Below, piece by piece: positions 1-37,229 of a stretch of DNA of 64,000 bases. This DNA comes from Mesotaenium endlicherianum. Its lineage: Eukaryota. Location of the stretch: contig WELA01000374.1 of NCBI GenBank assembly GCA_009602735.1, forward strand, positions 1 through 64,000. The letters are read 5' to 3'. Position 1 is the first letter of the stretch; each line of letters starts with the position of its first letter. The notes beneath the pieces were generated by a model. That model was not told where the DNA came from. It saw only the letters and a program-made list of their open reading frames with translations, and did not search any database. The position numbers were made by a program, and so were the translations under genes.

Positions 1-317
1 TAACAGTCGTTTCCGTTGACACGGGAAGGTGACAGGAGGTCCTGTCTCCATATAAGTTGGAGGGAGATGTGACAGTTGTGACAGGTAGCCCACCTTTAAA
101 TTTAAGTTGGAGGGAGTGGTAGTCTCCGATCACCATATTACCTACTCAACCTGCGCTCACACTTTCTTGCTCTCCAACTCAATTTTTCCTTATATTCGCT
201 CACACCAGGTATTCCACTCTTGGAACTCTCCCGATCGCGTCCCTCTTCATCAAGGGCACTCAATAACGGCAAAATATCATGACTTCACTAATCGCATTGT
301 GTTTATGATTGAGCAGG

Positions 318-1985
318 ATGACTCAAAAGTCGGAACTCAATAGGAAGAGAAGGGCGGAAGAGGCACATGCAAAATACTTGCAGTTCCGTGGAGACATTGA
401 ATCATCTTCCATCACCGCTCGGGAATCACAACGACTCCAACAACAGCGGGAGGCATTGAAGAAGAAGGAGGAGGAGGAACAGGCCAGACTGAGGCAGGAA
501 GAAATGGACAGAAAAGCTGCAGAGGAGGCTAAGAAAGCAGAGGAGGAGAGGCAAGCTGAGGAGAAGCGGAAGCAGCAGGCTGAAGAAGAAGAACAGAGGA
601 GAATCAGCAGCTACCGCTACACGGTGCTGGGCAAGGGCTTTGATCTACTGGAGGAGGCCTTCAAGTATGCCCAGAGAAGTCGCAGTGAGTCGCAGAAGGA
701 AATCCTCCAGAAGGAAGGGGAGACATCCGAAAACTTTGACAAGTATATAGAGGTCGGCACAGGGCTCCTCCTCTACCACGATTACGCCAGGATGGTAGGA
801 TATACCATCGGAGAGGCCAAGGCAATGGCCCAGGTGAACGAAGCAGGAGCTGTCTCGATTCCTGGTATCTGGGGGGCAGATAGGGTCATCAGGATGATCC
901 CCATGGACGCGGACAGCTTCAAGGACTCAACACCCCACAACAGGTTCAAGGCCATGTACAATGAGGTGGAGAGGAGGAGCTGGGAATTCTTGGCCAGAGA
1001 AACCAGTCAGCTGGACTTTGCAGGGCACTGGTACCCTTGTACTCTCAAAAAGACAGACGCTGCCTTCTTCCAAAAGCCCACTGATTGGCGGTGGATGACC
1101 ATCAACATGAGGGACCAGCAGAATGACAGGGCGACGGATGAGGATTTCCTGACAGACCTAAACGGGAACATAGTATTGCCCCCTCACATTGCGGCTTGGG
1201 ACCCAAGATTGGATGGAGTCAGAGACTGCATGAGCCAAGAGATGCAGGGGGACAGAAGCAGGGCCCGAGAGTCATTCTCCAAAGGGAAGCACGCTTATGC
1301 CAAATGGGCAAGTAAGCAGGGGGAAAAGGACCTCTATGCGGTCCGGACTCAGCAGCCCCCACCAGCACCCAAAAGGGGAAGGTCAGTAGGATATTCTTTT
1401 TCTCGGGAAGAGCTGGAGCAGCGGACAGAGGAGACCCCAGAAGTCTCAGAGGAACCCGGGGACGGCGAGGAGGCGGAGTCGGAGGAAGACGAGGAGGAAG
1501 GCGAGGAGGAGGACACTAGCCCCGCCGTGATCCTGACACCTGCCACATCCCCTGTAAGGGAGAAGACGGGGTGGGCCCCGCCGCAACTCGCTCAAGAGGA
1601 GGATATCACTTGGCTGGGGACTGCCAGAGGACAGAGCCCATCTCCAGGCAAGGAGACCCAGTCGGACAGGGCAGACAGGAGGGCTGCTCGGGAGATAGCC
1701 AGAGGCCTGCCAGCATCTCCCTCGCAGAGAGGGCATGTACCCTTGGCTCATGTCATGCAACATCCTTCCGGGATGCCGGTATACGTACCTGTCAGTTTGA
1801 GGGCTGCCCAGGAGAAGGCTGCCTCCCTTCAGTTTCAGACTGTGCAGGAGGAAACAGCCCAGTTACTGCGTTCTCCGCCGGGTCCTTACACGGAACCCCC
1901 TTCTCTGACAGGCTTCAAAAGACCCCAAGACAGGAGGAGGTCTGGCTCCCCTGAGCATAGGGCCTCAGGGATATCTCCCTCCTAA
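318..1985 (+). CDS. Family X accessory ORF3, type a, intact (~555 aa): N-terminal charged coiled coil, Trp-rich central domain, acidic and Ser/Pro/Arg-rich tail; function unknown
   Basis: Long open frame; first ATG at 318. Homologues at 37230-38902, 53088-54740 and a divergent one at 59858-61534. Confidence 0.85.
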   Translation: MTQKSELNRKRRAEEAHAKYLQFRGDIESSSITARESQRLQQQREALKKKEEEEQARLRQEEMDRKAAEEAKKAEEERQAEEKRKQQAEEEEQRRISSYRYTVLGKGFDLLEEAFKYAQRSRSESQKEILQKEGETSENFDKYIEVGTGLLLYHDYARMVGYTIGEAKAMAQVNEAGAVSIPGIWGADRVIRMIPMDADSFKDSTPHNRFKAMYNEVERRSWEFLARETSQLDFAGHWYPCTLKKTDAAFFQKPTDWRWMTINMRDQQNDRATDEDFLTDLNGNIVLPPHIAAWDPRLDGVRDCMSQEMQGDRSRARESFSKGKHAYAKWASKQGEKDLYAVRTQQPPPAPKRGRSVGYSFSREELEQRTEETPEVSEEPGDGEEAESEEDEEEGEEEDTSPAVILTPATSPVREKTGWAPPQLAQEEDITWLGTARGQSPSPGKETQSDRADRRAAREIARGLPASPSQRGHVPLAHVMQHPSGMPVYVPVSLRAAQEKAASLQFQTVQEETAQLLRSPPGPYTEPPSLTGFKRPQDRRRSGSPEHRASGISPS

Positions 1986-2070
1986 GGGCAGCAGGCTGGG
2001 GATAAGAGGGACAGCACGCTGTTACTAGTGATAGTGTTGTCGAGGCGACAACATGATAAGTTGGAGGGAT

Positions 2071-2791
2071 TGTAATGAATCAGTATACTGGTTGATATAA
2101 TATTCATTTAAATAATATAGTTAAATAAGTTCAGCCTGCTGAACTCTAGTTAACAATCAGTCTGCTGGACTTTATACTTAATATCAGTTTAATGACTTGG
2201 CCGGAAGTAGCAGGCTGAGGTCACCTTAAGTCAGCTTGCTGACACATTCTTTGACAGCCAGCTGACTTCCGTACTCGGTAGCAGCGAACTGCCTCGATAT
2301 GCATCTAAGTGTGGTATGCTAGATGAATGGCCAGATGACATCCCTATGATGGATGGCGATTCGGGATGATGGGAGATGGCGGTGGATTTGGTTAACCGAG
2401 GTCCTACCAACGTGGTTAACTCCCGGGTAGGCGGTGCCATCGCACTGACCGTTGAACAGTAAACTCATTCCATGTACATACGCTAGACATTGCTCTCGAG
2501 TTCGGCATTCGGAAACGAGGCCAACTCTCCTGTACAGCTTACTGAGAGAGATCTGAATCCAAGGCGAGAAGCCATTGATACGCACTGTCTTCTAACCTTG
2601 CTTATGTATGAGTTTACTGATTTGCGTTATTGATGCTAGTTTACTCGCATTTGACTTACGAGTATTATTCACTGCTAGTGTATTGTCCTTTGCCGTTTAA
2701 CCAGCTAACGGAAATTGCCATAAAGATTACTTGTTGATATAAAGATCTTTATAAATTGTTAATCGCTTATTTGGTAAGTCGATTCATTTCA
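2071..2791 (+). repeat. Family X LTR (3' LTR of copy 1), 721 bp
   Basis: Termini TGTAATGAATC...GATTCATTTCA (11-bp inverted repeat, 1 mismatch), preceded by the PPT. Seven more copies in the window. Confidence 0.95.
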
Positions 2792-2843
2792 CGAAGCAAC
2801 CTCAACAGCAGGAAAAAAGAGGACGCCAGTAAGTCGTTCTGGG

Positions 2844-5800
2844 GTGTCTACTGGCGTGAAGACGAGAACTCACAAGGAGGTTATCCCCAGGAGCCTGCCG
2901 AGATGCAAAGGACGAGACGTTGACAAGCCTATCATCGTGGAAGGAGTAGTCGACGGCAACAAGGCGAAGTGTATGGTCGACAGTGGCGCAAGTGCAAACT
3001 TTGTGCACAAGAAGCTGGTGAAAAAGTGGCGAATCCCTGTGCAGATTAATTATGAGTCTAAGGAGGCAATTTTGGCGAATGGGCAGAAGAATTATGAGTC
3101 TAAGGAGGCAATTTTGGCGAATGGGCAGAGACTCAAGTGTGGTGCACCTACGGAAGCTATTCACGTGGAAGTAGCGGGGCACCGGAGTAAGAAAGTTATG
3201 GAGCAGGCAGATTTGGGTCACCATGAGGTGATATTGGGCCGACCATGGCTGAGGAAAGCCAACCCACAAGTGCACTGGAGCACAGGACAAGTGAAAGTCC
3301 AAGGGCGTGATGGTCGAATGGAGACAGCGAAACAGGTGGAGGTAGATACGACCACAAGTAACTGTCTTCTGTCGAGCCTGCAAGTTAAGAAGCTATGCAG
3401 GGCAAATCAGGTGAAGGAGATGTACCTTGTTTCGGTGGCCCTGGCCAGGTCATCAGATGGAGCAAGCGTGAATCCTAACAGCCTGGGCGAATGTACATCG
3501 CCGGAGGAGCAAGTAGTGGTGTCTGATCCCCTTGCTCAGAAGGAGCAGAGCCCAACTGCTCAAGAGAAGAAGCCTGCTGAGATGCCTGCCCAAATTAAGG
3601 CGCTGTTGGAGGAGTTCAAGTGCGTATTTCCTGAGGAACTACCTGCAGGATTACCTCCACAGAGAGCTATGGAGCACAAGATTGAGTTGGAACCAGGAAG
3701 CAAGCCACCGGTGAGACCCGCCTATCGCCAATCGTTTGTGGAGTTGGATGAGTTGAAGAAGCAGCTGACAGAGTTGTTGGAGAAGGGATTCATCCGACCC
3801 AGCGAGTCTCCATTTGCAGCGCCAGTCTTATTTGTGAAGAAGAAGGATGGGACTATGAGGATGTGTGTCGACTACCGGGCTCTCAACAAGGTCACCATCA
3901 AGAACAGGTACCCACTTCCACGAGTGGACGAGTTGATTGACAGGCTTGTCGGGGCAAAGTATTTCTCGAAGATCGATTTGAGGAGTGGCTATCACCAGGT
4001 ACGGATTGCGGAAGGAGACGTTCAGAAGACTGCTTTCAGAACTCGCTATGGTTTGTTTGAGTTCACAGTCATGCCTTTTGGATTGACCAATGCACCTGCT
4101 ACATTTATGGGACTCATGAATAGTATCTTCAGACCCTATTTGGACCAGTTTGTGGTTGTATTTTTGGACGACATCCTGATCTATTCGAAGACCTTGGAAG
4201 AGCATGTGGAGCATCTGAGGAAGGTGTTGGAGGTCTTGAGAGATCAGAAGTTATATGGGAAGATGAGCAAGTGCGACTTCTGTCTCAAGGAGGTCGAGTT
4301 TCTTGGACACATAGTGGGAGCTGAAGGAGTCAAGGTGGAGCAGAAGAAGGTGCAAGCAGTCAGAGATTGGCCGGTACCTGCTGATATTCATCAACTCAGG
4401 AGTAGGCATGGCGAATTATTATCGACGTTTCATTGAAGGATTTGCCAAGGTATGTGCACCGCTCACGGACATGTTGAAGAAGCAGGAGAAGTGGCTATGG
4501 GGTGACAAGGAGCAGCAAGTATTTGAGAAGATTAAAGAGCTATTGACACAGGCACCTTTGTTGGCAATTGCAAGTCCAGAGCTTCCTTTCACCATCATCA
4601 CGGAAGCATCAAACTTTGCAGTGGGAGCCATTCTTCTCCAGGACCAGGGCAAAGGATTGCAGCCTGTGGCATATGAGAGCAGAAAGTTGAGTCCTGCGGA
4701 GCAAAACTATGCAGCACACGAGCGAGAGATGTTGGCTATTATCCAGGTTTTGAGGATTTGGCGATGTTATGTGGACGGCCGGAAGGTGTTTATCAAGACC
4801 GACCACAAGAGCTTGGAGAAGTTTATGACGCAGCCAACGTTGACACCAAGACAAGCAAGGTGGATGGAGTTTCTGCAACAGTTCGACCACAAGATTGAGT
4901 ACTTACCTGGGAAGATCAACCCAGCAGACGCTCTATCCAGGAGGTATGACCTTGCAGCTGTTTCGGTCATTAAGGAGAATATGGACTTCAAGAAGAAGCT
5001 TCAGAGAGGTTATGGGGAGGACCCAGAGTTTGCTGATGGTGGAGCAGCTGAGTCCAACTCGAGTATGCAGAAGAAAGACGGCATATGGTATTATGGTGAT
5101 TCCAAGAGAGTGGTGGTACCTGACATCAAGGAGCTACGAGACTTACTACTTGCGGAGCATCATGACTGCTTATATGCTGGACACTTTGGAAGCGAGAAGA
5201 CGGCAAGCGTGCTGAAGCGGGAATACTACTGGAGAAATATGGACAAGGACATCGAGGAGTGGATCAGGAGTTGCGATGCGTGCCAGAGAAACAAGACACC
5301 AAATCAAAAGAAGGGAGGTACATTGCAGCCCCTGCCTACTCCAGAGTATCCCTGGGAGCAGATTGCTATGGACTTCATCACATCGTTACCAGTCAGTGGT
5401 CAAGGGCACGATGCAGTATGGGTTGTGTCTGACAGACTCAGCAAGATGGCTTACTTCAATCCCATGAAGGAGACTTCTACGGCAGCAGATGTGGCACGGC
5501 TATTCTTTGATCATATTTTCAGGCTACATGGGTTGCCGAAGGTGATTGTTTCAGATCGGGATCCAAGGTTTACTAGCAACTTTTGGCGGTCATTGTTTAC
5601 TTTGATGGGGACCAAGCTGAGTATGAGCACTTCCTATCACCCTCAGACAGACGGGCAGAGTGAGAGGCTCAACAGAACTCTGCAAGAGGTGCTCAGGAGT
5701 TTCACTATGGAGGACCCTTCAGAGTGGGACAAGAAGCTGCCAGGATTGGAGTTTGCCTACAACAACAGCATGCAGGGATCCACCAAGCAGTCACCATTCG

Positions 5801-6466
5801 CTATGGTTTATGGGCGAGAAGTATATCATCCAGGGAACATCTTGTTGGAGAAGGCCAAGGAGAGTCAAGTTCCTACTACAAGCTTTTATAGAGCAGATGG
5901 CCAACACTTGGCACATGGCGAAGACGTGTATTCGGAAGGCACAGGAAGAGCAGGTCAAGCATGTTAACAAGCACAGGAGGGAAGTGACATTCCATGTGGG
6001 CGACAAAGTACTCTTGTCCACAGAGAACCTACCTTTCACAGGCAAGAGGAAACTGCGGGCACGGTTTACAGGTCCCTTTGTAGTGCTCAAGCAGGTGAAT
6101 CCAGTGACCTACAAGTTGGAACTTCCTTCAGGCTGGCGTATCCATGATGTGTTCCATGTCAGTTGTTTGCGGCCATACGTTGACCCGAATGAAGGACATC
6201 CAGGACGACTACCTACACCGCCACCACCGGTCGAGATCGATGATGTATTGGAGTATGAAGTGGAGGCGATTGTCGGCGATCGACGAGTCAAGCGAGGTCA
6301 ACGATTTGTCCAAGAGTATCTGGTCAAGTGGAAAGGCTACCATGCGGACGACAACACTTGGGAGCCAGAGGCCAACTTGACTCATTGTAAGAGTAAGTTG
6401 AGACGTTATCTGCAGAATGCGTCGAGGACGTCGCATCTTGAGGAGGGGGATGATGTAAGGTCATAG
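2844..6466 (+). pseudogene. pol: Element B pol: aspartic protease, reverse transcriptase, RNase H, integrase, chromodomain; two frameshifts
   Basis: Motifs MVDSGAS (PR), MCVDYRALN / MPFGLTNAP / FLDDIL (RT), AYESRKL (RH), HDCLYAGH...CDAC and IVSDRD (IN), GPF, YEVEAIV...YLVKWKGY...TWEP (chromo). Split over ORFs 2844-4436, 4408-5967 and 5660-6466. Confidence 0.93.
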
Positions 6467-7045
6467 GTTTATAAAGTGCATTTTTGAGTTTCATGAAAGT
6501 ATGTTTTGATTGTATAGTAGTGTAGAGTGCATTTTTGTGGTCATTTTGATATAAAGTTCATTGAATTTGGTCAAGTATTGAGAGGGTTACGGATTTCTGA
6601 AGTTTAATTAGTTTTGAGGTCGGTTGACGACTGTCCTTAATTCGCGGTGAGCGCGACCGTCGGATTGACAGACAGCGTCGAGCGGTCTGGCCCGTTAGAA
6701 TGAATTCGAACCTTCACGTAATTCGGCTGACGCGGAGTGCCGACTAGGTCGATTTACCTAGAAGTTTCGGTTTAGCCTAGCGCGTCTAAGATAGAATATT
6801 CTAGTAATGTCGATGCATGTATGTGGACGTCAAATCGGCCCGACACGTCAGATTAGACTGATCTGGCTTACTCACGAATATTTTGGAAGGGACAATTTGA
6901 CGAACACTTCGGAAATCCGTAGCTTCCTCCTAGGGAGGAGCACTTAGGCAGAAAATTATAAATAGGCATAACTTCTTTGTTTCTTATCAGTTGTCACTTC
7001 TGTAAATTCCTACGGGTTTGTAATGACAAGGCCTTTCATCCTACA
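6454..7045 (+). repeat. Putative 3' LTR of element B
   Basis: Starts TGT right after the PPT, is non-coding, contains TATAAATA near 6957 and ends ...CA. The second copy lies outside the window. Confidence 0.6.
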
Positions 7046-7173
7046 ACAATTGTGAGCAGTTTCTTGCTACTCAAAATGTCAAGTAATTTTCCTAAGCTTT
7101 GTTAGTGATATGCCGCTGCACTCTCTAGTATGATTGCAACTAGTTCCTTTCCTCGTGAGTCACTACGCTTCCA

Positions 7174-8650
7174 CTAGGGCACTCTGCCCCTTTCACTAGC
7201 AGACAATTGCTTAGCATCCGGGTACGGACAATCTCTCTTCTGATGTCCTAATTTCCCGCAATTCCAACAGCCCTGTGCTGTCTCAGCAGTGTTGGCGTGC
7301 TTAGCCAACCTATTGAAAGACCCGCTCTTCCTTTTAAACTGAAAATTAGAGCTATTGGCCTTAGGTTGAAAGGATTCCTCCCTTCTCCCAGGAGCCATAA
7401 GCGTCCTGGACGTCTCCTTGTACCAAACGTTACCTTCCTCGACATTGCGTGCTATTTCAGCAGCCTCGTCAATGTTCCAGTCAATTTCGCGTTTTGCAGA
7501 TAGGTGCGGCCTGACCTCCCGATCTGTGTCTTTACCTAGACACAATAAGAAATTGTCAGCCACAATCCTAGGCTCATAGATTCTTGCCTTCTTGGCAAGG
7601 TCTACCAATCTGGATTTGACCTCCATCACTGTCTCGCTCTTCTGACGGACAAAATGCACATAACGGTGCACCTTAAGACTGCGATCCTCTGGGAATTTTG
7701 CTTCAAGCAATATAAAGAAACGACGCAGACAGTGCTCAGAGTCTAACTGGTCATCCCCAACCTCCATATCCCTACGGCAATTAGCCAATGCTTGCGCATG
7801 GCTTGCTTCCGTGGTGGCACTATCACCATGCTGCCCTGTAAAAGGTGCAGCCTTGCGCGTTACTCGTTCCTGAGCATTAGCAATCTTTTCAGACAATTCT
7901 GCACACACTTTACGCAATTCTGCGACAGACCCAGCATCATCATTTCGAGTAGCCGCTCGCTGCTGACCCTCGGTGAGCTGCTTCATGGCATCTGTTAATT
8001 TTTGTGTTAGTGCAGCTAAGTCTACGCTCTCAACAGGTGTAGCAGGTATCGCTCTTCCTGATCACAAAGTGGACAGGCGGGCTTTCGTAGCCTCTTTCTG
8101 GATTTTTAAATCCCTCGCCTTCTTTTGCTCGTCAAACGCCCATTCCTGGGTAAGGTTCTCATCCTTCCGGAATTGGCGATAAAGCAACAAGGCATCCTTG
8201 TCCAAGTACTGAACCAAGCTTATAAAAGCAATTGACTGAGTGTAAGAAGAATCCTTTGGATTTTCTCAAAGAAGTCAGCCCAATAGATCTCATCAAACTC
8301 TTCGAAAGTGAGACTATTTACCCCGGTTCGTCCACTAAAACACTTTGTAGACAGCTTGAACTTAGAATTTTCATCCTTATCATCACCAGTCATTTCGAAT
8401 GGTGACCAAGACTCACTATCTTTACCCCACACGTCGTGCTCTCTGCCCAAATTGGGTACAAAGGCTCGCTCGTTATACGGATTCTCACCGTTGGTGGCAG
8501 TATGGCGAGACTCGTCTCCCGACGGTTGCTCACTCCACAGGTTATCCGTGCACTCAGATGTCTCACTTCCTCGTGGACTCTGGCTTGAATCAGAACCTTC
8601 CGCAGGCTCCACAGGGTAATAGAGTCTTCCACTCCTCAACCGCATGTACA
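7174..8650 (-). pseudogene. gag: Element C gag relic (retrotransposon Gag with CCHC zinc knuckle), disrupted
   Basis: CWNCGKLGHQKRDC knuckle in ORF 7174-7986; N-terminal MRLRSGR motif in ORF 8220-8714; broken frame between them; truncated by element B. Confidence 0.7.
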
Positions 8651-11247
8651 GTTGAATTTCTCCGGGCCCCCTTCCCGGTTGAGCACCGGCGGCCCTCACA
8701 GGCCTCAATCCCAATTTGCTTGGGAATTTCTGTTCACCTGAACCATAGAACCAGGTTCTCAGAAGTAGGACGGAAGTCTCCTACTTCCACATAGGCTTTA
8801 AGCCTTAAGGTTCTTGAGTTCACAGGTGAGCAAATTGTGGTTTGCAAAAATCACACTCTAAGCAGCTTGACATACAACGTCAGGTTTAGAGAAAATCGCC
8901 CTTCAGGCTTTCGCTTAACTTTCGCAAGTCACAGCTTACAAAACTCTGAAACTGCACGTCTATGCTGGCCTGGGTCAAGCTCTTCACTTAAATCCGCGCC
9001 TTAACAGCTCTTCACCGCCAGGCTGGGCTCACTCAGTTCTTCCACGAGAGCTTTATCTGTCAATACTACTCTCTCTCTTCGAGATGCGAATGCGACTTCT
9101 GAGAACCTGGAAACTAACACACAACTCACCATTTGAAAGCTGCTTCACACACACTTGTGGCGTTCGGCCGAATCTGTGCTAGTCTCCTAGCAGATTCTAT
9201 TCTGCAGTCCTCCTGCTGTCAACAGTGAGATTCCCTCTTGGGAACTCCTACAATCCTAACTTATCTATGATACACTGAGAAGAATCTTCAGCGTCGGCAG
9301 AAGCGTGGGGCCTCGGCCCTCCAATGGCCTTGGAAACTCGTTCTTCTTCTTCGCGCCCTTCTTCTCCTTCCTTCTGCTTCCTCTGCTTCTTGGCAAAAGT
9401 GTGTGAGAGTGAATGACATGTCTCAGGCAAGGTTCGTGGCTTTCGCAGGCACCACACAGCGTCATCCTTCGAGAATGCCGTGCTTAGTCACAAAGCTTAG
9501 CTGCATGTCGCTTCTTCCTAGCCATGCTCAACTCAAACTCGTAGTCACTCAGCATGCATGCACACCTCGTGACTGTCGCGCGTGGCTGCTTAGCTTCTCA
9601 GTTGGCAGTCACGCCTAATTGGCTCATGGATAAGAACTCCTGCACGGTGTGTACAAGCAAATGCCACTTGCTCAAGATTCCCACTCGGGCGGCCGTAATC
9701 TATTTTGGCATTGCGGCCATGACCTGGCTTAATCTGCCAGTCAAACAGTACTGGGCTTGGTACCTGCTGGGCGGCTCATCACTGATCCCCAGCTTCTAGT
9801 CTCACGGTTGTCTATGCTGTCAAAACCTCCCCCATTCCTGGGTGTGGGGCACATTGACATTGACCCCTTGCCAGTGGTCTTTATGCTGACATAACCGCTG
9901 ACTGCGACGAAATCAGTCAAGTGGTCGGTGAGTCAACGTTGACTTTCCGTACCTGGGTGGCCGTAGCTTGCGCTGCGCGTGCCGCGTCAAACGGATAGTA
10001 GTCGCGACATCTGTGATATATCCGACCACATATTACGTGATAATTGTCAATATAATACAACTATTTACGCTTTTGTCGAGGTTGTTGAGCCAAACCTTAG
10101 TTGTCCGCATTCATAGAACTGCACTGCGTCGGAATTGACCACTGCGCTAGAAATCGATGAGGCGGGGATTTCGGCGACGTACTTGCAAAGTTTGCGAAAA
10201 CACTCAATATTTTGGAAACGTTGTGACAGTTAGCACACCATGTTGGACGCTGGTTGAGGAACGTGCGGCACCATGCGGCACAGTACGCCACGAGCTGGAA
10301 GTGGGCAGGAATACGCCCGTCCCTGAAAATCGTGAAAAGAGCGTTTTTCAAGTCTTCCGAATCGGGGTTTTCCCGATTTGGTAAAATGGTTATTTCAGCA
10401 TAATAGCGATTTAGATCGCGAGGATGGGTTGCTAGGCTAGAGGGCCGGAGACCTACCAATTGCTGAACATGAAGATGTTCACGCTGGTCTTCCCGAATGA
10501 AGTAGGTGCAAACTTTGAAGTACAATAGATGCGAAGGTACAACCTTTGGGCCCTCTTCTATGCATCTAAGGGGTTGGTGGAAGAGTGTAAAAGACGGTGC
10601 GAGGAGTCGTTCGGCACTCTTTTGAGCTAGAGATCTCGAGGACACGGAGCTTAAATGCAGGAAATGAAGTAAGTGAGATTGCTGCACCCGTAGCATTACA
10701 CTCCCGTTCTCGCTAGGCCCGGTGCTATGCACCAATATTTTAACTTCATTTCACTAGATGTGCAAAAAAAAAAAGCTCCAATGCATAGTGTGCTTGGTTA
10801 GTTTGACCACTTGCGACCAAACGCAGCAAATTTGCACGCAGCTATCTAGCTCTGCTCTCCTTTGGCGTGCCTCAGCTTGAGTATGCGCCTGTGAACATGT
10901 TAACACAAGGCGCCTCTCTCACATAAATGCACCTCGAGAAGGGCATGTGCCAGCTGAGCTGTATAGTGACGTAGAGCATTTACTGCACTGATTGACCTGC
11001 ATTGTCAAACTGCTTGGCACGACTGGCTCAAAATTTGAAAGCCCTCCTCCCAGCCTTTTCTCTTCTACACCCGACCAGAAAAGCGCGCGTTGTGACTTCA
11101 GAAGGTCCATCTGCCTCCTTTTCTTCCTCAAAGGTGCAGCTTCCCGCCCTTTGTGTCCAGAAGCCCGCGTCTAAGGTGCTCAAACCCTTCAGACGTGTCG
11201 CTACTCGTCGTTAAGGTTTCAAGGAAAAGCAGGCTCCGGCAGCCAGG

Positions 11248-20561: not shown

Positions 20562-22147
20562 TCATGAGTAGCTGTCCAGAAGCTGCGGGAGGGGTTGCTG
20601 CTTATAATACATAGGCTCAAAGAAATCTGCCTGAGAATGAGGAGTTGGGACCATGGGAGGGGTTTGGAGAGTGCGCAGCCGCATGACCTCCTGCTGGGCC
20701 ATGGCCAGCTGATTCTGCAGTGTCCCCACCTGTAGACACAATGAGTAAAAGAAGCAAGGCATGGCATGTCAAACAAATGTGATCAACATGTTGTTACTCC
20801 AGGAAATGATGCACTCATCTGCATGAAGAAGAATCGCATTACAATATTCACCTCCTTGCATAATAGATAAATAACTCGAAAGAAGTACAAAAAATGATCA
20901 GAAACAGAAAACTGTCCTCCCATCCCTTTCACCTCCTCCCCCATGCACCATGCCAACCCTTTGTGTTCAGAAAAGAAACAGAAAACGTCGAGTGATTGTC
21001 CAGGCAGCAAGTCTCTAAAAAACTGTTCAGTCTTTTCACTACCAATACCTCTTTCTTGTAATTTAAGATTCAACAATACCTGTTGTTGAAGAGCAGAGAT
21101 GGCAGCCACACAGCCATAGATTGGATCCCTGACTCGAGCGTCGGCTTCATAAGCCAAACTGCTCGCAGCATCACTCCTTTGGTATTCAGGTAGGTCCTGT
21201 AAGTTCCATGCAGAGCGTAGCATTAAGGGCACAACTGTCAGATAACATTAAATATTTCATGATAGCAGACACCTCTCCTAGTATTCATGAAAGTGTGTCG
21301 GTTGGCAAGCTGTAATTCATGGGCCATCTAAGCAGGATATGAGTCCCATATGTTAGGGCATTCTTTAACGGGCCTGACATGACATTCTTGAACAAGCTTG
21401 ACAGTATCTTAAACAACTTCATCAGCAACCAGATGCCATCACATTCCATGTCCTCATTCCTCTCACAGCTAAACCAGAGCTGGGCTTCAGAACCATAGAA
21501 TGACCTTCATAGCATAAGAAAACTGCATGCTTAGGCTGCACACGGTTCTCTTGAACAGGTACTATACACGAACACAGGTTGAAGAAGACAACATCATATA
21601 ACAAAGATCTACAGAATTCTTGACCTCACTTAAAACCATGACTAACTTATAGTTGCCCGCCATTCTAGCAGTATGCAAGGTTCAGCAGGACCTCAAACAT
21701 GACAGCTTCTGCATAGGAACAAGAATCACAGACAGTCCTTGTGTTAGCAACTAAAGCAAGCTCAAGACCTTGGCAAGAAGTAGACCACAGTTGTACGTCT
21801 ACTCGATCACAACCTCGGCCTTATACCCAGTAGTTTTTGCCAGCATGCACAGTCTTCTATCTGAAGACATGTAAACGGCAAGAATGGCCAGTGACAAAGC
21901 TACAGGACCACAACAGATCTGATCATAACCTCCACTAAGTAGGCAGAACTCCAACCAATACCTGCAGCATCTTGGCGACGTTTGATGCTCCAAAGACGCG
22001 ATGGACATTTGCAAACCGGTTCGGCTCGTCATTAGGAAAGTAAGGCGCAAACAGGCACTCTTTTGCGCAACGTCTTCTTAGAAGCTTGCAGGCTGCGCAT
22101 GGGGAGGACCCTGTAACAAGACCCATTGAAGCTGCCGATCCTGGCAT
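20562..22147 (-). CDS. LBD: Class I LOB-domain (LBD/ASL) transcription factor; exons 22147-21962, 21196-21080, 20729-20562
   Basis: CAACKLLRRRCAKEC (CX2CX6CX3C), FANVHRVFGASNV (GAS block), EADARVRDPIYGCV, and leucine-zipper-like LQQQVGTLQNQL. GT-AG phase-0 introns join in frame. Confidence 0.93.
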
Positions 22148-24720: not shown

Positions 24721-27700
24721 TTAGTCGGAACGTATAGCTGTATTATTCAATCGCTCAAGGGCCAAGAGAAGTGCCTGCGTGCCAAGGTCTTCGTCACCAT
24801 GCGCCTTCAAAGAGACGTACAATTGTTGTGCCTGCAAGATGGAGGAAGAATTCACAAGATCGTAATGGAGGCATCAAAGCCGTGCACTGATCAACCTTTA
24901 GTGACAACGGGCGCATCTTGAGATTTCTCCCAAATACGAGGCACAACCCGATTGTTGCAAGCCTTTGTCCCCAAGAGCGTAAATGTCTGAAGAGACTGTA
25001 GATTCCAGCTTACGAGCGGAGGGACACAAAATCATACTAGCAGTTTCTTAACAGAGAAAAAAACCAAATGTGCACGAGTCACGGTACAAATACCTCTCAC
25101 GACACCCACTGGAACTTTTGAATGTACCACGATAAATATTTGCAACAAACGTGGCCGCCTATGGGTGGACGATTAAACATGGCGACCTGATATGTACTCA
25201 AAGATTAGCCCCATTGTAGACCTTGACACGGCAATTTGCGGAGCCTCCAAATGTTAATTAAAAGTGGGACCTTCATTACTATAGACTTCAGTGGCAACAA
25301 GAGAAGGCGAGGAGAGTTACCAGGGCCAGTCCTGGAAGGGAAAGGTTAAGGTCGCGGCACTCCTGCAGGGCTATCCCGAGGTCTTTCACAAAATGCTTCA
25401 CGTAGAAGCCTTCAAACAAACGCGGGGCGAGCACAAGAGAAGCCCACTCCACGTCAGTCAGTAGAGGAAGTCTGGACGAAATTGCCTTCACTGAAGTCTA
25501 TGAACGAAAATGGCTGCTTGGCGTGTTGATGCCATTCACAGTCTGACGATGCAAGGCGACGCTGCGTTCAATAGCCGCCGCAGAGTTGCACAGAAAATGG
25601 CAGCGTTGTGGTCTCAGCCGACGCTGACATCAACGTCTGACGTGGCGGCAACACGCGCAGAGCACCGCAAGGGGATGAGAGCGGGAGAACGGAACAATCG
25701 TTACAGTCTTGTCTCGACACCATGGCTAGTTCTTCACCCTGTGACAGATCATTGTCATGCATAAGGATGGAAGAGGAGACATTGGAGCCGGGTGCAGGAG
25801 CCCCCCGTCATTCCTTGACAGCCTTGTACCACCTGACTATAATGCCTATCTATGTTAGCGTGTGCGTGCGCGTGTTGTGTGTGTGTGTGTGTGCGTGCAT
25901 GTGAGTGTGTATGTGCGTGTGTGTTTTGTGTGAGTGTGTGAACAAGTTTGCGCGCCGCCACTCGCGCGTCGGTGCAAGGTTTGCATGTGTCTCTGTGTCT
26001 GTTTGTGCATGCGAGCCCATTCGTACGTGCCGTTGCAAAAGTAGGACTGCTCGTTCAATCCTGTCAAGAATACAGACAGTAAAGAAGACCGGAGAACAGC
26101 AGGCACTGCAGGGGGGAGGCTAAAGGGAACCAGGGAGGGGGTGAGGGAGGGAGCGACACCTGGCAGAAAGTCGCGCTGCAGCAGGCGGGGCGCGTAGAGG
26201 TCGAGGGACTTGGAGCCCGCTGCTCCGCCCGAGATGGCTCTCAGGTACCTGTGGGGCCTCATGGCCACACACGCACACACGCACAAAGACACACACACGC
26301 ACACACATATATATATATGCACGCAAGCACACACGCACACTCCCACACACACGCGCTCGCACATACACACACATACACGTGCACGCACACCCACGCACAC
26401 CCGCACAAATACGCGCGTGGACGCACATATACATGCGCACACACGTGTCATAAGAGAGAGGCCTGCAAGTGGCACGTGGAGGGGGCATGAGACTGACGCC
26501 AGTGGTGTCATGCATGCGGCTCTTGCGACAGCAGAAGCAGCTTCAGCAGCAGGAGGACGATGTGGAAGTGGAAGTGGAAGCAGAAGTGGCGACTGCGGTC
26601 ACACACGCCTGTTGTGCCTTCCCTTTTTCCACTCTCCTTGCTGGCAGCGGGATCGCAGCTGCAGCAGCCCCCTGTCCCCTGTCCCCTGTCCCGTGTCCCC
26701 AGCCCTCTGCCCACTTTCCAATCTTCCCCTCCCTTTTCGCGCGGCTGCTAGCTGCTAACCCGTTCTCCTCTTCCACGCTCAAAGGTGGCACCACCTCACC
26801 ACTCACCGCCTCTGTCTCAGCGCCCCTTTTCCTGCCATCTCATGTCCATGGAGAGGCAAAGGAGGAGAAAGAGGAGGCGGAGGGAGGACGAGAGGAGAAG
26901 GAAGCTGTCTACCCACAGACCCATGACAGAGGAGAGGAGGAGGAGGAGGAGGAAGGAGGGGCAGGGGCGTGCGTGCGTGCGTACGTGGGCACGTGCAGGC
27001 CGGCCTTGTGCGCGTACAGCATGCCCTCCACCATGCCCACCATGGTGCTGGCAATCGTCACCTGCTCCCCCCCTCCCCCCCAGCCCCACCCCCAGGCCCA
27101 GCACCCCTTGGTCAACGTCAGGTCAAGGGCAGCGCCCGTGCAGACCTCAGTAAGAGCGCGTGCACATGTGCACGAGGGCGTGCGCGTGTGTGCGTGCGTG
27201 TTCGCGCGTGCATGCATGTATATGCGTATGTGTGTGTGTGCACAATTGTGCTGGGATGTGGTAGCTAGCGCCCGCCCGCATGCCCACCCGCCTTACTGAC
27301 GAATTGACAGGGGGTGAGAGCACACAGCAGCACAGCTGGGAGCAAGAGGGAGAGGAAAATAGGAGCAGCCTGGCACGCTCCCTCCCTCCCTCCCTCCCTC
27401 TCCCATATCCCCCATATCCCCCACCCACCACTGCCCCTGCCTGTGCCTCTCCCCTGGCGCTGCTGTGATCACCGTAACTCACTCAGAGAGCTCATGCGGA
27501 GCGCACCGGCAGCGGCAGCGGCAGGAGACACGACAGGGGACGCTAAGGACGCGCCGTTTCCGAGCCCTACCACCGCCACAGCCATCGCCCGATTGAGACG
27601 CACTCATTCTGTTCAATGCACGTCGGGCTCCAGGGTTCGGCATTTGTGGTTTGGGGTTCTGGGGTTCTTGGGCACGCGATGCGATTGCAAGTGGCCTCTT

Positions 27701-30532
27701 TCTGGCGCACGCGCGGTCGAGAGGCGGAGAGGGAAGGTGCGGCCACTCTTGACCACGACGGACACGCACTGCTTCCGCGTGTGTCTTTGCGTGTGGTCTT
27801 GCTTGTCCGCAGCATCTCTCTCCCTCCTTTTGCTTTCTCTCCCTCCCAGCATCCATATGGAAAGGGCAGCCAGTCCCTCCCTCTCCTCCCCGTCACACCT
27901 CAGGACAGAGTGGCGGCGCACCACAGGCGCCAGCTGCCGCTTCTCAGCCGAGCGAGCACGCGTCATGCGCACGCGCTTGCACGCCCACGCGCACACCCAT
28001 CCGGCCCGCACACCCACCTGGTTGGCGAGCTTGCAGCTCTGGCCCGCCCCGGCAGGGCCCAGGTAGGTCGCGCTGCCCATGCAGCTGAAGAGCGGCGCGA
28101 GCGCTTGCACGATGTGCTCGTCGCCACCTGTCATGATGGCCAGCGTGGCGCCCTTGGCCCCCTTGTCGCCGCCTGACACCGGCGCGTCCACCGAATGGCA
28201 GCCCCTGCAGAGAGCAGACCGCCCGCAGCAGCAGCAGCAGCAGGAAAGAGAGGAGGAGAAGGACAAGAACAGGTGGAGGAGGAAGAAAACAAGGTGGAGG
28301 AGGATGAGGATTTCACTGGAATAACTATTACCAGGAGCAAACATCTTCGATACAACTGCTAAGAGTAACTGTGAGCGAGCTCTTGTCATGACGACGGGCA
28401 TGCTGCTGACATTTCCTGCCTGCGTGCATCTGCCTGCCTGCCTGCCACTCCTCAACACTCAGTTGGCAAATAGCGCTTCAACCGAGCAAGAGAAGCAAGT
28501 GCGGCAACTGTCGAGCCTCTTGCCCTCATCCTCTTTTCTCTTGCTCTCACGCGCGTGCACGCACCGTGTGCACACATACATGCAAGCGTGAGCATGCACC
28601 GCCCGTAGAGGCACCCAGAGAAAGCGTGTTGGGGGCGGAGGGGGTAAGGAACAAGCTCGGATACAAGCAACAGGAGAGAGAGAAAAGGGGGAGGGGGGGG
28701 GAATAGCCAGCGCGGAGGAGAATAAGCTTTCAGGAGAGAGAGCACGGCCCGCTGCAAGCTGCCCGCTGCCCGCTGCCTGCAGGTTGCAGCAGTCTGCAGG
28801 AGCCCTTGGGGCTTGCGGGTAACGAGAGGGTGGCAAAGAGCGCGCACTTGCTCTTGGCGGCCGCCGCGATCTCTCGCGCCAGCGCAGGCTCGCTCGTCGT
28901 CATGTCCACCACCTGCCCCCACCAGCATGCACGTGCCAGCCTGGCAGCAACGCTCAGAGGTCACCTGGCGCTGGCTCCGGCCCTCTCTAGTCTCCACTCC
29001 CCACCTACCCGCCCATCTGCGCACACCTGCCGCCATTTGAGCACACCCACAGACCTGGCTGCACCCGCCGCCTTAGTCTGGCGAAATGGGAAGAGGGAGC
29101 GCATGGCCCTAGCCCCCCCCCCGGGCAGTCTGGGACTGCATTCAAGATCAAGCGAGCATTCCACCCTAAACCCTGATTCGGAAAGAAATGAAACTCGGCA
29201 TCGGCAACCCTGAAGCAAAACCCGAAACCAAACCCCAGACGAAGACTCCAAAGGGCACAGACTTGGAATCCCAGACTCTGGGCCCAGGCTCTGAAAGCCC
29301 TGGCTGGACCGGCACCATCCCACCTGAGGGCCTGGAGATGGAAAATCCACAGGGAGTAGGCCCACTCGGCCCAGGCCGGGACGTGTTCACGATCAGGACT
29401 GGCCCGAGCTCAACGACAAAGCAGCTGGAGAACAGGAGCGTTACCATGGCAAGGACACCCGTGAGGGAGGAGAGGGGAGCAGAGGGCAAGCAGAGAGAGA
29501 GAGAGGGGGGGNNNNNNNNNNNNNNNNNNNNNNNNNNNNNNNNNNNNNNNNNNNNNNNNNNNNNNNNNNNNNNNNNNNNNNNNNNNNNNNNNNNNNNNNN
29601 NNNNNNNNNNNNNNNNNNNNNNNNNNNNNNNNNNNNNNNNNNNNNNNNNNNNNNNNNNNNNNNNNNNNNNNNNNNNNNNNNNNNNNNNNNNNNNNNNNNN
29701 GGGGGGGGAGGGAGCGCACCCAACGATAGTGAAGACGACGTCGCTTGCTCGCGCCACCTCAGCGGGAGACGCCAGCACTTGCGCGCCCTTCTGCCGCAGC
29801 GCGTCCGCCTTGCTGCTCTCCTCCGCCCGCCCGCCGCCCGCCCCTCAGCCAGTCAGGACCAACAATCGCACGCAGTAAGCCCAACGAGCGGATGTTGATG
29901 CCCTTTGACGGTCACAAATGCCTAAAGCATGCTCCTATCTCTGCTAGAAGTGCAGACATGGGCACAAGCGCGCGCACAAGCAGCCATGGAGTAACGCAGG
30001 CAGGCCTCGCTGCCCTCTCTTTTCCGGTTATGAGTTGAATGTGGAGAGTTGAGGAAAAAGGCGTCATGCGTGCAGAAGCGAGTGAGGGTCAAGCAGAAAC
30101 AGAGGCTCGCATGCACAGGCCGCTGCTTGCCCGCTTCTCTTCCCCGCGTTTGAGAGTTCAACTTTCACTCAATCTCATTTAGTTGGCGCACTACTCTTTC
30201 TCTCTCATTAGTGGCCAAAGGAAAATCCAGCAGCAGTGTATCACTTCAGAGGGGGAGAAAGAAAGAGAGAGGGAGCAGAAGAGATTGTGAGAGAGCGCAA
30301 GGGGAGAGGGATAAGGCGTGGGATGGGAAGGGATGGGGTGGGATGGGGGGAGGGTTGGACCAGCTACAGCAGCGGCAGCAGCTAGGGGAAAGCGCCCTCC
30401 CTCTCCCTTTTCTCCCCCCCTCCCGCCCTCTCCCTCCCTTCCTTCCTCCTGGCCCATCTTCCGTGAGCCTCGCCTGGGGTGCGCGCGCGCCTGCGTTTTT
30501 CTTACAGAATCTGGAGCCAGCCAAGCCGAGCA

Positions 30533-30564
<32 letters not shown>

Positions 30565-31704
30565 GTTGAGAGAGAGATGGATTGCTGACCTGGCGGTGCG
30601 GTTGAAGACGCTGAGGTAGTAGCCGGCTGCCTGCAAGTGGCCTGCCATCGCGCTCCCCATGACACCTGTCCCTACCCATCTGCCGCCAGCCACAGCACCA
30701 GTGCGACAGGTGTCAGCAGGGGCCCCTCTCATGTGTCCTTTTTAGTCGAGACGTTGGGGCCCCGTTCTCGCACGACCATTGCTGGCTCTCCGCAAAACAC
30801 TCGCATGATGGGAGGCGGTGCCGGTGCCACCTGGCAATCCCTGGCATCCTCCAAGTTTTTCACGTAGAAGACCTCTGCCGTCCCCTGACGTGGAAGCCAA
30901 AGTAAACGCTTTTAGGCTCGTCAACTCTCTCTTGCTCAATTTCCCCACTTGCTGTTCGACTAGACCCGTGCAGCTGTGAAAGGAGGCGTAGAGGGAGCAG
31001 GCAGCGCAGAGGTTGGGACTCGCATCGACAGCAGCAAGCAAGCATGGGTGGCTGTTCCGACACGCGGGACATCCCGCCACAACACTCGACTGCACGTGCC
31101 AAGGGGAAAAGACACCTAGCAAAACCCAGACCTCCCAACGAGCACCTTATGCGTTCAATAAAATATTCTTCCTTTTGAATCACAGGCACGAGTGGCTTGC
31201 AGAAAGTGTGTGGCTCCTGTGGGGGGCGGGGGGCACCCTCTTGCTCCGTCTGTAGCTATCGGCTGAAGGCCCATTCTTTCTGGATGAGAATGACAAGCTG
31301 CAGAAGCTTAGGAGGAGCCATGTTTACTATTGAAAGAGGGAAAAAAAAAAAAAAAAAAAAAAAACAACCGAAAAGCTGACGTACCCGATTCGTGTGACTC
31401 CCGGCTTGATGGTGGGAACGGCGGGCCGGGCTTCTGTCATGGTGGCACTCGATGAGGCAGTAGAAGCTGCCCGGGAACTGCGGGCACGCGGAGGAGCTTC
31501 AGCTGCCCGCACTGCAGAAGACAGTCTCTTGCCGGCCGGTTTTTCCCCCTCCGCCAAATTTGCCTGGGATCTTACGACAAAATGAAATCTTCTTGCGCGG
31601 CCTAAGTCTGGCCTTGCCAAAACCCACCCAGCCTGCTGGAATCTTCCAAGGAAAAGGTTTTCGCCTGCCCAAACACATGTCAGCGTCAGACATGGACCAA
31701 ACAT
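24721..31704 (-). CDS. Multi-exon 3-hydroxyisobutyrate dehydrogenase-like (beta-hydroxyacid / 6PGD NAD-binding family) gene with a possible organellar transit peptide
   Basis: Exon peptides [12 protein letters not shown] (Rossmann), [37 protein letters not shown]...[32 protein letters not shown]...[20 protein letters not shown]; last exon 24831-24721 [30 protein letters not shown]...stop. Start ATG uncertain (31440 or 31704). Confidence 0.9.
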
Positions 31705-34700: not shown

Positions 34701-37229
34701 TATTAGGTCTCAGTCTGAGAACTGGCGAGTCCTCTGATATGGGTGCTCGGCAAGCTCTCTTTGAGAAGTGGCTCCAGGAGCGCCTGGCTTCATCAGCAGC
34801 AGAAGAAATGGTGAAAAGCTCCTGCTCCTCCTGCCCCCAGTGCTCCCACCCTGGCTTTAGTGACCCAGCAGTTGGGCCAGCTTCAGAACATGATCACTAC
34901 TTTGGCGGAAGACAAATCATGTAAGGCGGCTAACAATGACAAGTGGGTCCAGCAAGTCAAGAGGATGAAGATTAAGCAAGATTTGGTTGGTGACCACAAG
35001 CTTTCTGAGGTGAATCGTCTCCATGTGAAGACCTGCTCACATATGGTGGTTCTTATTGACAACACGCAGATTGCCTTGGAGAAAAATGATATTCAGGAGG
35101 CCAAGAAGTTGTTGGCAGAAGGTTTGTCTTCATTTGTTGCACCGAGCTCGCCAGATTAATACTGCTGACCTGCATGGATGGAATGTTGTGCTAAAGATGG
35201 CCAGAAATATAACTCTCAACAAGCAGGATAACGAGTAGGACACCAAGCTCTCCCAGGTCTTGATTAAGAGAAAGAGAGCTGAGAATCTCACCCTGAAAGT
35301 TAAGATTGAAAGTCCTCCTGCTGCTAACAAGCCTATTCTCCAGTCTGTCGAGGACAGCTGGATCTGCTATGCTTGTAACGAGCATGGTCATCTTTCCACA
35401 AGGTGTTCTTACAACAGGCTCATGTACCAGCCTACCCAATTTATTCAGCAAGGCCAGCCTCTACAGTACAACCAATCCACTCAGCATTTCAACAATCCAT
35501 ACAACAACAACCATAATGACCCTCCTATAGTCAATCAGCAACCCCCACCTCCTCAGATGCAGCAGAGGCGGCAGAACCATCCCAATGGAAATAATTGAGG
35601 AAATCAGAGGCAGTAGATTGCAATTGGTCAATGAAGTCTTTGTAATCAAGTCTTTAATAAAGTTGGCTGAGACCTATTATGGATTATTTAATTTCTTCAT
35701 TGATTTCCAGTAATCTCACTTTGCAAGTCTAAGTCTATCAAACAAGTATGTGTGTGTTCAGATAATCAACACTCTTGTCTGAGTCAATCAGACTGAATCA
35801 GATTGAATAGCTGGGTCAATCCACCTGATTTGAGAGCTTGCAAGTTTGCTTGAAGCTTTGCTTAATGCATTTCATTGGCGTTATGTGTTCTGTTGTGCTT
35901 CAGAAGCATTTGATACGGATGAGCTTAGGCTCCTCACTCCGTTAGGCAAAAGAGAAGAAGTCTGCAATATTTGCCTCCTATGGAGATAGCTGGCCTGGCT
36001 AGAAGGATGTCTCAAAGAGTTGCTTGGTGGAAATCTTGGTGTAAGAGTAGTTTTGTACTCACTGTTATTGGCAATGGGTACAGACTGTACTCTATGTTAT
36101 TGGCAATGGGTACAGACTGGAGTGGGAGGAGTCTTTCCCTCTACCTCTTTAAGGAGAATTACAGCTCTACTGACAAACATATTGCATTCGCAAGAGAAGT
36201 TGTGGAGGAATTGGTTGTCACAGGAGCTGCCAAGAGATGGACAGAAGCGGATCCTCCTCTCTGCATCAGCCCTCTCCATGTAGTTGAAGGCAAGAATCCT
36301 AGGCTTATCCTTGACCTTCGCATTGTCAATAAAGCTTTGCAAATTGTGCACTTCAAATATGAAGGATTGTTTAAGCTAGGAAATGTCTTAGAAAAGAATG
36401 CTATATGTTCTCCATAGATTTTTGAAATGAATCGACTTACCAAATAGGCGATTAACAATTAATAAAGATCTTTATATCAACAAGTAATCTTTATGGTATT
36501 TTTCGTTAACTGGTTTAACGGCAGAGGACAACACACTAGCAGTGAATAATACTCGTCAGTCAAATGAGAGTGAACTAGCATCAATAATGCAAATCAGTAA
36601 ACTCATACATAAGCAAGGTTAGAAGACAGTGCGTATCAATGGCTTCTCGCCCTTGGATTCAGATCTCTCTCAGTAAGCTGTACAAGAGAGTTGGCCTTGT
36701 TTCCGAATGCCGAACTCGAGAGCAATGCTTAGCGTATGTACATGGAATGAGTTTACTGTTCAACGGTCAGTGCGATGGCACCGCCTACCCGGGAGTTAAC
36801 CACGTTGGTAGGACCTCGGTTAACCAAATCCACCGCCATCTCCCATCATCCCGAATCGCCATCCATCATAGGGATGTCATCTGGCCATTCATCTAGCATA
36901 CCACACTTAGATGCATATCGAGGCAGTTCGCTGCTACCGAGTACGGAAGTCAGCTGGCTGTCAAAGAATGTGTCAGCAAGCTGACTTAAGGTGACCTCAG
37001 CCTGCCACTTCCGGCCAAGTCATTAAATTTATATTAAGTATAAAGTCCAGCAGACTGATTGTTAACTAAAGTTCAGCAGGCTGAACTTATTTAACTGTTA
37101 TATTTAAATGAATATTATATCAACCAGTATACTGATTCATTACAATCCCTCCAACTTATCATGTTGTCGCCTCGACAACACTATCACTAATAACAGCGTG
37201 CTGTCCCTCTTAACCTCAGCCTGCTGCTT

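Follow-up and report, generated by a model that had tools for sequence, protein, structure and literature searches.

The window analysed here is a 64,000-nt stretch of contig WELA01000374.1 (GenBank assembly GCA_009602735.1) from Mesotaenium endlicherianum. It contains copies, referred to below as c1 to c6, of a chromovirus, a chromodomain-bearing Ty3/gypsy retrotransposon with long terminal repeats (LTRs), and these copies carry a third open reading frame (ORF3) between pol and the polypurine tract (PPT). ORF3 is a real gene under purifying selection that lies in the position of env and lacks the hallmarks of an Env protein. It occurs in two strongly diverged types, a and b, and copy c6 is a mosaic of the two. 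Taken jointly, these points are held with high confidence. Judging by the searches described below, the product is apparently a new protein. New here are the swapped ORF3 types, a conserved branch point and splice acceptor combined with a donor in U5, and sparse ORF3 RNA. The duplicate of the hairpin and PPT, the splice signals and the recombinant nature of the type-b copy were absent from an earlier, first-pass annotation of this DNA and were found in the present analysis.

All comparisons of copies concern those located inside the 64-kb window. ORF3 was found at the following positions:

318 to 1985, plus strand: ORF3 of type a in copy c1, intact, 555 aa
37230 to 38902, minus strand: ORF3 of type a in copy c2, with one frameshift near 38315
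53088 to 54740, plus strand: ORF3 of type a in copy c3, with one internal stop at 53796
59858 to 61534, minus strand: ORF3 of type b in copy c6, intact, 558 aa
56474 to 56518, minus strand: C-terminal tail of a type-b ORF3 in copy c4, severed by the insertion of c5 and followed by the hairpin, the PPT and a diverged LTR

Relative to the ORF3 protein of c1, amino acid identity is 95–96% for c2 (in two pieces) and 86% for c3, as given by tblastn on the window, and types a and b are 49% identical, in blocks, in the MAFFT alignment. The tail of c4 was missed by tblastn and recognized by direct translation: 14 codons and the stop at 56518–56474 match the C-terminus of type b. With this tail (at ~56475–56520), ORF3 or its remnant lies between pol and the PPT in all five family copies that have a 3' end, in agreement with the first-pass annotation, which had claimed a long sense frame for every such copy. 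Wherever pol is in view, ORF3 is preceded by a pol that ends with the chromodomain, and the hairpin, PPT and LTR follow downstream. The five alternative frames hold 10–20 stops each in c1, and 9–30 each when both intact copies (c1 and c6) are considered. By position ORF3 belongs to the class of sense 3' extra ORFs, being at least 250 codons long, forward, 3' of pol, separate from it and present in most copies.

In the core of ORF3 (residues 96–345), c1 and c3 differ by 25 synonymous changes per 151 sites and 18 non-synonymous changes per 596 sites. The resulting ratio of non-synonymous to synonymous divergence (dN/dS) equals 0.165 (Fisher p 1.7e-8). For the whole ORF3 of the same pair it is 0.32, with 0.40–0.55 in the coil, acidic and tail segments, and the two pieces of the c2 frame yield 0.20 and 0.28. 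As a control, the same elements gave 0.105–0.177 for pol and 0.29–0.57 for gag; the core of ORF3 is constrained like pol. Differences in the core fall on codon positions 1, 2 and 3 in 8, 7 and 29 cases, respectively (5, 6 and 22 outside the CpG context). Indels of 3, 6 and 12 nt keep the frame, against a single 1-nt indel. Between types a and b synonymous sites are saturated (proportion of synonymous differences, pS, 0.79), and the frame is open over more than 550 codons in both. The first-pass annotation had taken ORF3 to be under selection and functionally conserved, and the core value, not near 1 and close to those of pol, bears out the selection for the copies in the window.

The ORF3a protein consists of a coil (residues 1–95), a conserved core (~96–345), an acidic segment (346–410) and a low-complexity tail rich in SP and TP. 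The sequence RKRR stands at residue 9, and basic clusters at residues 9–12 and ~351–356 are present in both types. The basic N-terminus, charged coil, acidic tract and SP-rich tail described earlier were thus recovered; the description of the tail as SP/RS-rich holds for its SP/TP part, but the RS stretch is short (two and four RS/SR dipeptides beyond residue 500 in the two types). A tail block common to types a and b, residues ~463–496 (window ~1704–1805), is strongly kept and is a candidate partner-binding motif; no database match to it was found. Like env, ORF3 is a sense frame between pol and the PPT, but a membrane segment and glycosylation sequons are lacking. The highest 19-residue Kyte–Doolittle mean is 0.88 in ORF3a and 0.73 in ORF3b, neither protein contains an N-x-S/T sequon, and the cysteines number only 2–3. 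No hydrophobic segment was seen in the Kyte–Doolittle scan, a dedicated signal-peptide predictor not being applied. ORF3 is not Env-like, and the earlier statement that it has no transmembrane segment stands.

The host element is a chromovirus. Pfam matches across c2, c3, c5 and c6 follow the order Ty3_capsid, aspartyl protease, RVT_1, RT_RNaseH, rve, SH3_Tf2-1 and Chromo, and the family has LTRs of ~721 nt with TG..CA ends, a primer binding site (PBS) and a PPT. The parts of its copies are as follows:

36423 to 45814, minus strand: full-length copy c2, LTR-PBS-gag-pol-chromodomain-ORF3a-PPT-LTR, with gag and pol interrupted
47544 to 55573, plus strand: copy c3 with both LTRs, pol interrupted and without an RNase H match
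56241 to 55574, minus strand: diverged LTR of copy c4, after the ORF3b tail, hairpin and PPT
56523 to 59000, plus strand: copy c5 with 5' LTR, PBS and intact gag, broken by c6, no 3' end in view
61802 to 64000, minus strand: pol of copy c6, covering RNase H, integrase and chromodomain and running off the end of the window
61719 to 61804, minus strand: stop codon of c6 pol with the hairpin and the PPT-like copy (61751); type-a similarity stops at ~61719
59001 to 59744, minus strand: 3' LTR of c6, diverged from type-a LTRs over its initial ~290 nt and type-a-like beyond
31 to 115, plus strand: hairpin and PPT-like copy (54–65) of c1 just past the pol stop, with a second PPT-like copy (104–115), both matching the true PPT
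2035 to 2069, plus strand: hairpin (z −6.35) and PPT of c1 ahead of the 3' LTR
2071 to 2791, plus strand: 3' LTR of c1 (721 nt, TG..CA); a motif of splice-donor consensus begins at 2773, 19 nt short of the LTR end

The LTRs of c2 differ at 17 of 723 positions (2.4%), those of c3 at 37 of 701; a 5-bp target duplication was seen for c2 only, which it flanks. The hairpin and PPT are duplicated past the pol stop in every copy in view. This PPT copy may mark the end of an ancestral element before the gain of ORF3, or else a second start of the plus strand. A tree was built from 29 reverse transcriptase (RT) sequences, two from the window and 27 picked by hand from 120 listed hits, with no REXdb references. 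The family falls outside the seed-plant RT group, its own place is without firm support, and no supported set includes it; the closest rows, among the hits listed, stand at ~72% (ena/jgi proteins). The named clades considered were Tekay, Reina, Galadriel, CRM, Tcn1 and Chlamyvir, and the tree places the family in none of them with support.

Four family copies between 47544 and 64000 are nested in each other head-to-tail or tail-to-tail, which suggests targeting to their own kind or to heterochromatin. Another chromovirus family, whose RT has ~68–71% nucleotide identity to that of the ORF3-bearing family, occupies 2792–7100 (plus strand), and c1 is inserted there. In this neighbour the PPT and LTR directly follow the chromodomain with no third ORF, and it therefore serves as a local control indicating that ORF3 is family-specific. 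Shortly before the end of gag, where pol starts in an overlapping frame, a TTTAAAA heptamer was observed at 58727–58756 (plus strand) and ~43590–43570 (minus strand). We take it to belong to the −1 frameshift motif class, and it is a candidate −1 ribosomal frameshift site.

In the terminal 1.1 kb of pol, type-a copy c2 and type-b copy c6 differ at 48 of 1114 nt (4.3%, synonymous divergence dS 0.106), less than two type-a copies do in the same stretch (5.6%). The similarity of c6 to type-a copies stops at ~61719, just past the hairpin and PPT copy, and resumes inside the LTR. Of the 29 LTR differences specific to c6, 25 are located within the initial 290 nt of a total of 721 nt (p 5e-7, uncorrected for the choice of the cut). 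During replication the template for the U3 part of an LTR is the 3' end of the RNA, and that for R-U5 is its 5' end. Given this, the pattern corresponds to R-U5 and pol of type a joined to a foreign ORF3 and U3. Copy c6 is, on this reading of its sequence, a recombinant with type-b ORF3 and U3 on a type-a backbone and an inferred crossover at ~61719. The position of the break within the LTR would likewise place the start of transcription at or before ~290, upstream of the splice donor. The swap seen in c6 is a single event. Since the type-b tail of c4 stands next to another, more diverged LTR, type b may belong to an older sister subfamily. Co-evolution of ORF3b with its U3 is not evident, as c4 and c6 have only 4 of the 29 c6-specific LTR differences in common.

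Candidate splice signals were found immediately upstream of ORF3:

288 to 317, plus strand: predicted branch point (288–292) and 3' splice acceptor (AG at 315–316) of c1, one base before the ORF3 ATG
61535 to 61565, minus strand: predicted branch point TACTAAC (61565–61559) and acceptor (AG at 61537–61536) of c6, before the ORF3b ATG

All four ORF3 starts have the identical sequence GCAG/GATG (the slash marks the predicted cut) and a branch-point motif 24–25 nt upstream (TACTAAC in type b). Apart from the branch point and acceptor, the spacers between pol and ORF3 of types a and b are unalignable. The combined pattern occurs five times in the window, both strands included, and four of these are at ORF3 starts; when each 80-nt stretch upstream was shuffled 200,000 times, it arose in 0.02–0.04% of cases. 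The motif GGTAAGT has only two sites in the 9.4-kb c2, one per LTR, 19 nt from the LTR end and upstream of the PBS. This donor is present in seven of eight LTRs, the eighth being cut short. The conserved acceptor and U5 donor suggest an ORF3 mRNA spliced in the manner of env.

RNA data were taken from six runs, 6–24% of each being read, and a junction was listed only when supported by at least 3 reads. The strand was assigned by the usual library convention, with which GT..AG joints are consistent in run X17 (2 of 2 reads), whereas in X11 only 1 of 3 is. In X17, which is apparently stranded, a cluster of sense reads with depth 8–9 covers 61171–61504, the 5' fifth of ORF3b. Most mapped reads are less than 99% alike and hence come from other copies or strains. 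ORF3 RNA is sparse, and expression is neither shown nor excluded. Reads at 1–380 were rejected as a sign of ORF3 expression, since they are antisense by the usual convention and end near codon 20. A loose read end joins the start of ORF3a to inverted pol (~63042), which suggests one rearranged copy elsewhere; such a copy could be a source of fold-back RNA and small RNAs. In the RNA runs, GT..AG joints were also observed opposite the pol strand at 63508–63715 (11 reads) and 63555–63715 (6 reads), the latter also in contigs of a run of undefined kind. They possibly represent spliced antisense RNA over pol.

Searches for relatives left ORF3 unassigned, as the first-pass annotation had it: no significant homolog, family or fold match was obtained. 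A word-index search returned no match among 1000 candidates at E ≤ 0.001 for the ORF3a core and none among 1297 at E ≤ 0.01 for the ORF3b tail (proteins of ~305–977 aa in both cases). The a/b core profile produced two HMMER matches among 1.84 billion representatives (E 1.6e-6 and 5.2e-4). These were rejected as repeat proteins with summed weak tandem-repeat matches; even against a set of 122 proteins, no individual stretch scored below E 0.003. Nothing scored above the cut-off in Pfam, PHROGs, NCBIfam or PADLOC, the best sub-threshold match being Obc1_C (E 0.001, type b only). The list of described extra-ORF domains was that of REXdb Additional file 4 (Athila ORF1, PMD, Transposase_28, DUF390/601/1204/1633); for these, ORF3a had no Pfam match, and type b had only one, below threshold, in a charged region. 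Against PDB sequences the best E was 0.18–0.29. In metagenome and viral contigs, none of 212 and none of 57 pattern matches was confirmed, and phage records contained none. Nine loci with a 31–56% identical integrase showed no ORF3 match, most of them being too short to reveal a downstream gene, and no ORF3-like part was present in the 120 RT-bearing relatives listed. Rfam gave no matches on window positions 1–3000. Streptophyte algal transposon ORFs are probably few in the collections, so the lack of homologs is weak evidence of a restricted range. In cytosine methyltransferases the motifs come in a fixed order, and a reading of the conserved PC dipeptide of ORF3 as part of such an enzyme was rejected, as there was neither a Pfam match nor the motif expected to follow. 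No description of this family or of the ORF3 protein was found in the literature, subscription papers being outside the scope.

The first-pass annotation had also proposed a fold search on a model of the core. A model of the first ~98 core residues (predicted local distance difference test score, pLDDT, 61) has hairpin-helix and strand-helix-turn-helix elements. The Foldseek rows for it are mostly DNA-binding domains of the MerR/Xis type at E 0.9–10, with none at E ≤ 0.001. We regard the modelled resemblance of the core start to a MerR/Xis-type helix-turn-helix as a lead that falls short of a match.

The literature already recognises sense 3' extra ORFs as a class (PMC7264820). ORF3 belongs to it by position and adds an apparently new protein, a splice prediction and a swap between two versions. 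The earlier statement that chromoviruses normally encode only gag-pol proved overstated, since REXdb Additional file 5 lists Tekay extra ORFs of at least 250 codons, at 33, 12, 18 and 8% in four position classes (PMC6317226). The sense-3' share among them is 18% or 8%, as the Athila row of that file seems shifted relative to Additional file 4, and its six other chromovirus rows show no extra ORFs (PMC6317226). As far as the available part of the source goes, REXdb reports extra ORFs in 3372 Ty3/gypsy elements from 314 groups, 21.4% of all extra-ORF proteins having a domain match, and does not name streptophyte algae in its text (PMC6317226). The sense 3' ORFs of Athila, SIRE, Tat and a minority of Tekay elements (eORF-3'F or aORF-3S) are described there, like ORF3, as long, in sense orientation, located between pol and PPT, found in the majority of copies and mostly domainless (PMC6317226, PMC7264820). 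Splicing to such an additional ORF (aORF) has been reported for Bagy2 (PMC7264820). In contrast to this class, ORF3 has no transmembrane segment, comes in two swappable types, has a candidate donor upstream of the PBS and has a host that is probably a streptophyte unlike seed plants.

The proteins encoded by 5' aORFs in Tekay (sunflower Tekay group 2, grass RIRE3/Retrosat) are, in the available portion of their description, chromovirus accessory proteins of ~400 aa with a predicted nuclear localization signal, coils and long disordered stretches, low in complexity like ORF3 and strongly conserved within a family (PMC11728184). They are encoded upstream of gag, whereas ORF3 follows pol and has a conserved core of ~250 aa; the comparison is by description only (PMC11728184). 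Tekay Bongo3 has an extra PPT at the pol stop and a working PPT downstream, as here (PMC3605345). No third ORF is mentioned in the part of that source at hand, whereas the duplicate in our family includes the hairpin and edges the swapped block (PMC3605345). The env of errantiviruses and retroviruses resembles ORF3 in position, strand and, by prediction for ORF3, a spliced RNA (PMC7264820). It differs in that ORF3 has no segment resembling a signal peptide or transmembrane helix, no sequons and few cysteines. The env product of these elements is translated from a spliced subgenomic RNA. The ORF3 of Chlamydomonas REM1 is reportedly antisense. It is cited, in the excerpt available, for a PHD finger (PMC6673714), and algal chromoviruses with methyltransferase cargo have been described in a preprint known in part (bioRxiv 10.64898/2026.05.21.726589). 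Both, so far as those sources extend, are algal Ty3/gypsy elements with an extra chromatin-related module (PHD, chromo, DAM or DNMT), whereas our ORF3 has no significant Pfam match. Partial accounts further mention a demethylase ORF in orchid Gypsy elements (PMC9289625) and a short chromodomain ORF3 in Selaginella (PMC3350952). VANC of VANDAL DNA transposons, a coiled-coil oligomer that counters silencing according to the part of the source seen, is proposed as a working analogy only (PMC13547354). VANC and Athila coiled-coil oligomers are treated together there (PMC13547354). VANC belongs to a different class of elements, and no sequence or fold link to ORF3 was found.

Tentatively, and with somewhat less than even confidence, we propose from the sequence features that the ORF3 product is a helper protein that acts in the nucleus, binds nucleic acids and sustains expression of the element in the face of host silencing. 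The proposal draws on the basic clusters in both types, the charged coil, the weak helix-turn-helix lead and the linkage to U3. In the transcript of the 5' LTR, splicing would probably join the U5 donor with the acceptor that precedes the ORF3 ATG by one base. Such splicing would take out the PBS, gag and pol, leaving a non-replicating ORF3 mRNA, as in the case of env mRNAs. ORF3 and U3 would, as we are fairly confident, move between subfamilies as one block by template switching in reverse transcription, the switch points being just past the hairpin and PPT copy after pol and at strong-stop transfer. The protein would rather likely be nuclear, oligomerise via its N-terminal coil and bind nucleic acid with its core. 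That ORF3 then transactivates the LTR or shields it from silencing is a more doubtful step.

A number of observations weigh against the proposal of a nuclear helper. The model of the 260-aa core is unreliable (pLDDT 40), its best similarity being to generic helical bundles (Z 5.0), and only one of five subdomain models exceeded pLDDT 44. In VIA-align the 98-residue model had unrelated folds as its best rows (Z 3.5), with MerR/Xis domains absent from the top. The selection analysis and comparisons rest on four copies only, and ORF3 is broken in two of the four near-complete copies, though both are in elements with a broken pol. As for splicing, the conservation of the LTR end that contains the donor has other causes, and weaker donors occur elsewhere too, one at the gag ATG and another within the spacer, ~105 nt upstream of the acceptor. 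A conserved TATAAA lies ~53 nt from the LTR end and, if it is the promoter, leaves almost no exon ahead of the U5 donor. The junction of the U5 donor with the acceptor was not listed in the six partly read RNA runs. Both PolyA-labelled runs have zero depth over the ORF3 core, ORF3 RNA is near zero in X16 and patchy in two runs that seem to be unstranded, and reads from the pol end are mostly antisense in two apparently stranded runs.

Several other explanations compete with the nuclear helper. It is possible, though unlikely, that ORF3 acts in RNA handling like Rev or Rex, its product being translated from the spliced RNA and binding the full-length RNA for export, stability or packaging and balancing the spliced against the genomic form. 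Given the splice signals, unspliced RNA would need protection, conserved hairpins stand on either side of the cassette, and the protein has Arg/Lys clusters and an SP/RS tail; a likeness of extra ORFs to retroviral accessory factors has been drawn before (PMC7264820). On the other hand, the RS content is low and no RNA-binding domain was matched. Proteins of the Rev type are also much smaller than ORF3. A cofactor of integration targeting or nuclear import, tethering the integration complex to chosen chromatin, seems improbable to us. The basic clusters and the clustering and nesting of family copies at 36–64 kb agree with it, and sunflower Tekay elements with an aORF, in the portion of the study available, insert differently from those without it (PMC11728184). 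However, the integrase already carries a C-terminal chromodomain, and both ORF3 types occur with almost the same integrase, a finding at odds with tight co-evolution of the two.

The two types might also be specificity alleles, old alternatives reshuffled in a conflict that sets subfamilies against each other or against the host (by exclusion, addiction or antagonism of a host restriction factor). Such an origin would account for synonymously saturated types that are conserved within type and block-swapped on backbones 4–8% apart. We nevertheless rate it as quite improbable, because plain recombination of two long-separated subfamilies yields the same pattern without balancing selection, c4 combines a type-b tail with a second, more diverged LTR, and no partner gene is present. 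It would be surprising if ORF3 encoded a non-membrane movement or particle-associated protein taking over the role of Env in spread between cells or mating partners: its position, sense strand and env-like splice layout fit, but there is no hydrophobic segment or sequon and no significant viral match by fold or sequence. We give very little credence to ORF3 being a passenger of no benefit to the element, whether a captured host or nested-element sequence or a chance open frame. Sparse RNA, the two broken frames among four near-complete copies and the PPT duplicate past pol, which resembles a capture scar, are in its favour. It is already largely refuted by a dN/dS like that of pol, by a frame of more than 550 codons open in two saturated types with mostly in-frame indels, and by the lack of a donor gene in the protein searches.

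The remainder of the window contains a fragment of a LOB-domain gene at 20783–21247 (minus strand; PF03195, E 7.7e-12) and an intron-rich host gene at ~27600–31700 (minus strand) with a NAD_binding_2 match (E 2e-12) and introns full of short tandem repeats. The LOB-domain fragment points to a streptophyte as host, and the style of the introns makes an alga likely. An RT-like frame at 35929–36417 (plus strand), cut by the insertion of c2, has no Pfam match; by eye it resembles what we take to be RT of the DIRS type. Gag-like frames with a zinc knuckle at 7174–8780 (minus strand) come from a third element.

What extra ORFs do in plant LTR retrotransposons is treated as an open question in the literature, as far as the available parts of it extend (PMC7264820, PMC6317226). 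Two natural versions of ORF3 on a nearly identical backbone, together with precisely predicted splice sites and a conserved core for which no relative was detected, make expression and function directly testable in this family. A broader picture, which we consider unlikely at present, is that an early-diverging streptophyte chromovirus has three genes laid out as in retroviruses, with the place of env taken by a soluble regulator that belongs to a new protein family and is made from a spliced RNA devoid of the PBS. ORF3 and U3 would then be exchanged together as anti-silencing modules while element and host engage in an arms race. The joint exchange would mean that the regulator travels with the half of the promoter on which it acts. 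Should ORF3 prove to counter silencing, retrotransposons would have in it an equivalent of VANC, and one from a new protein family.

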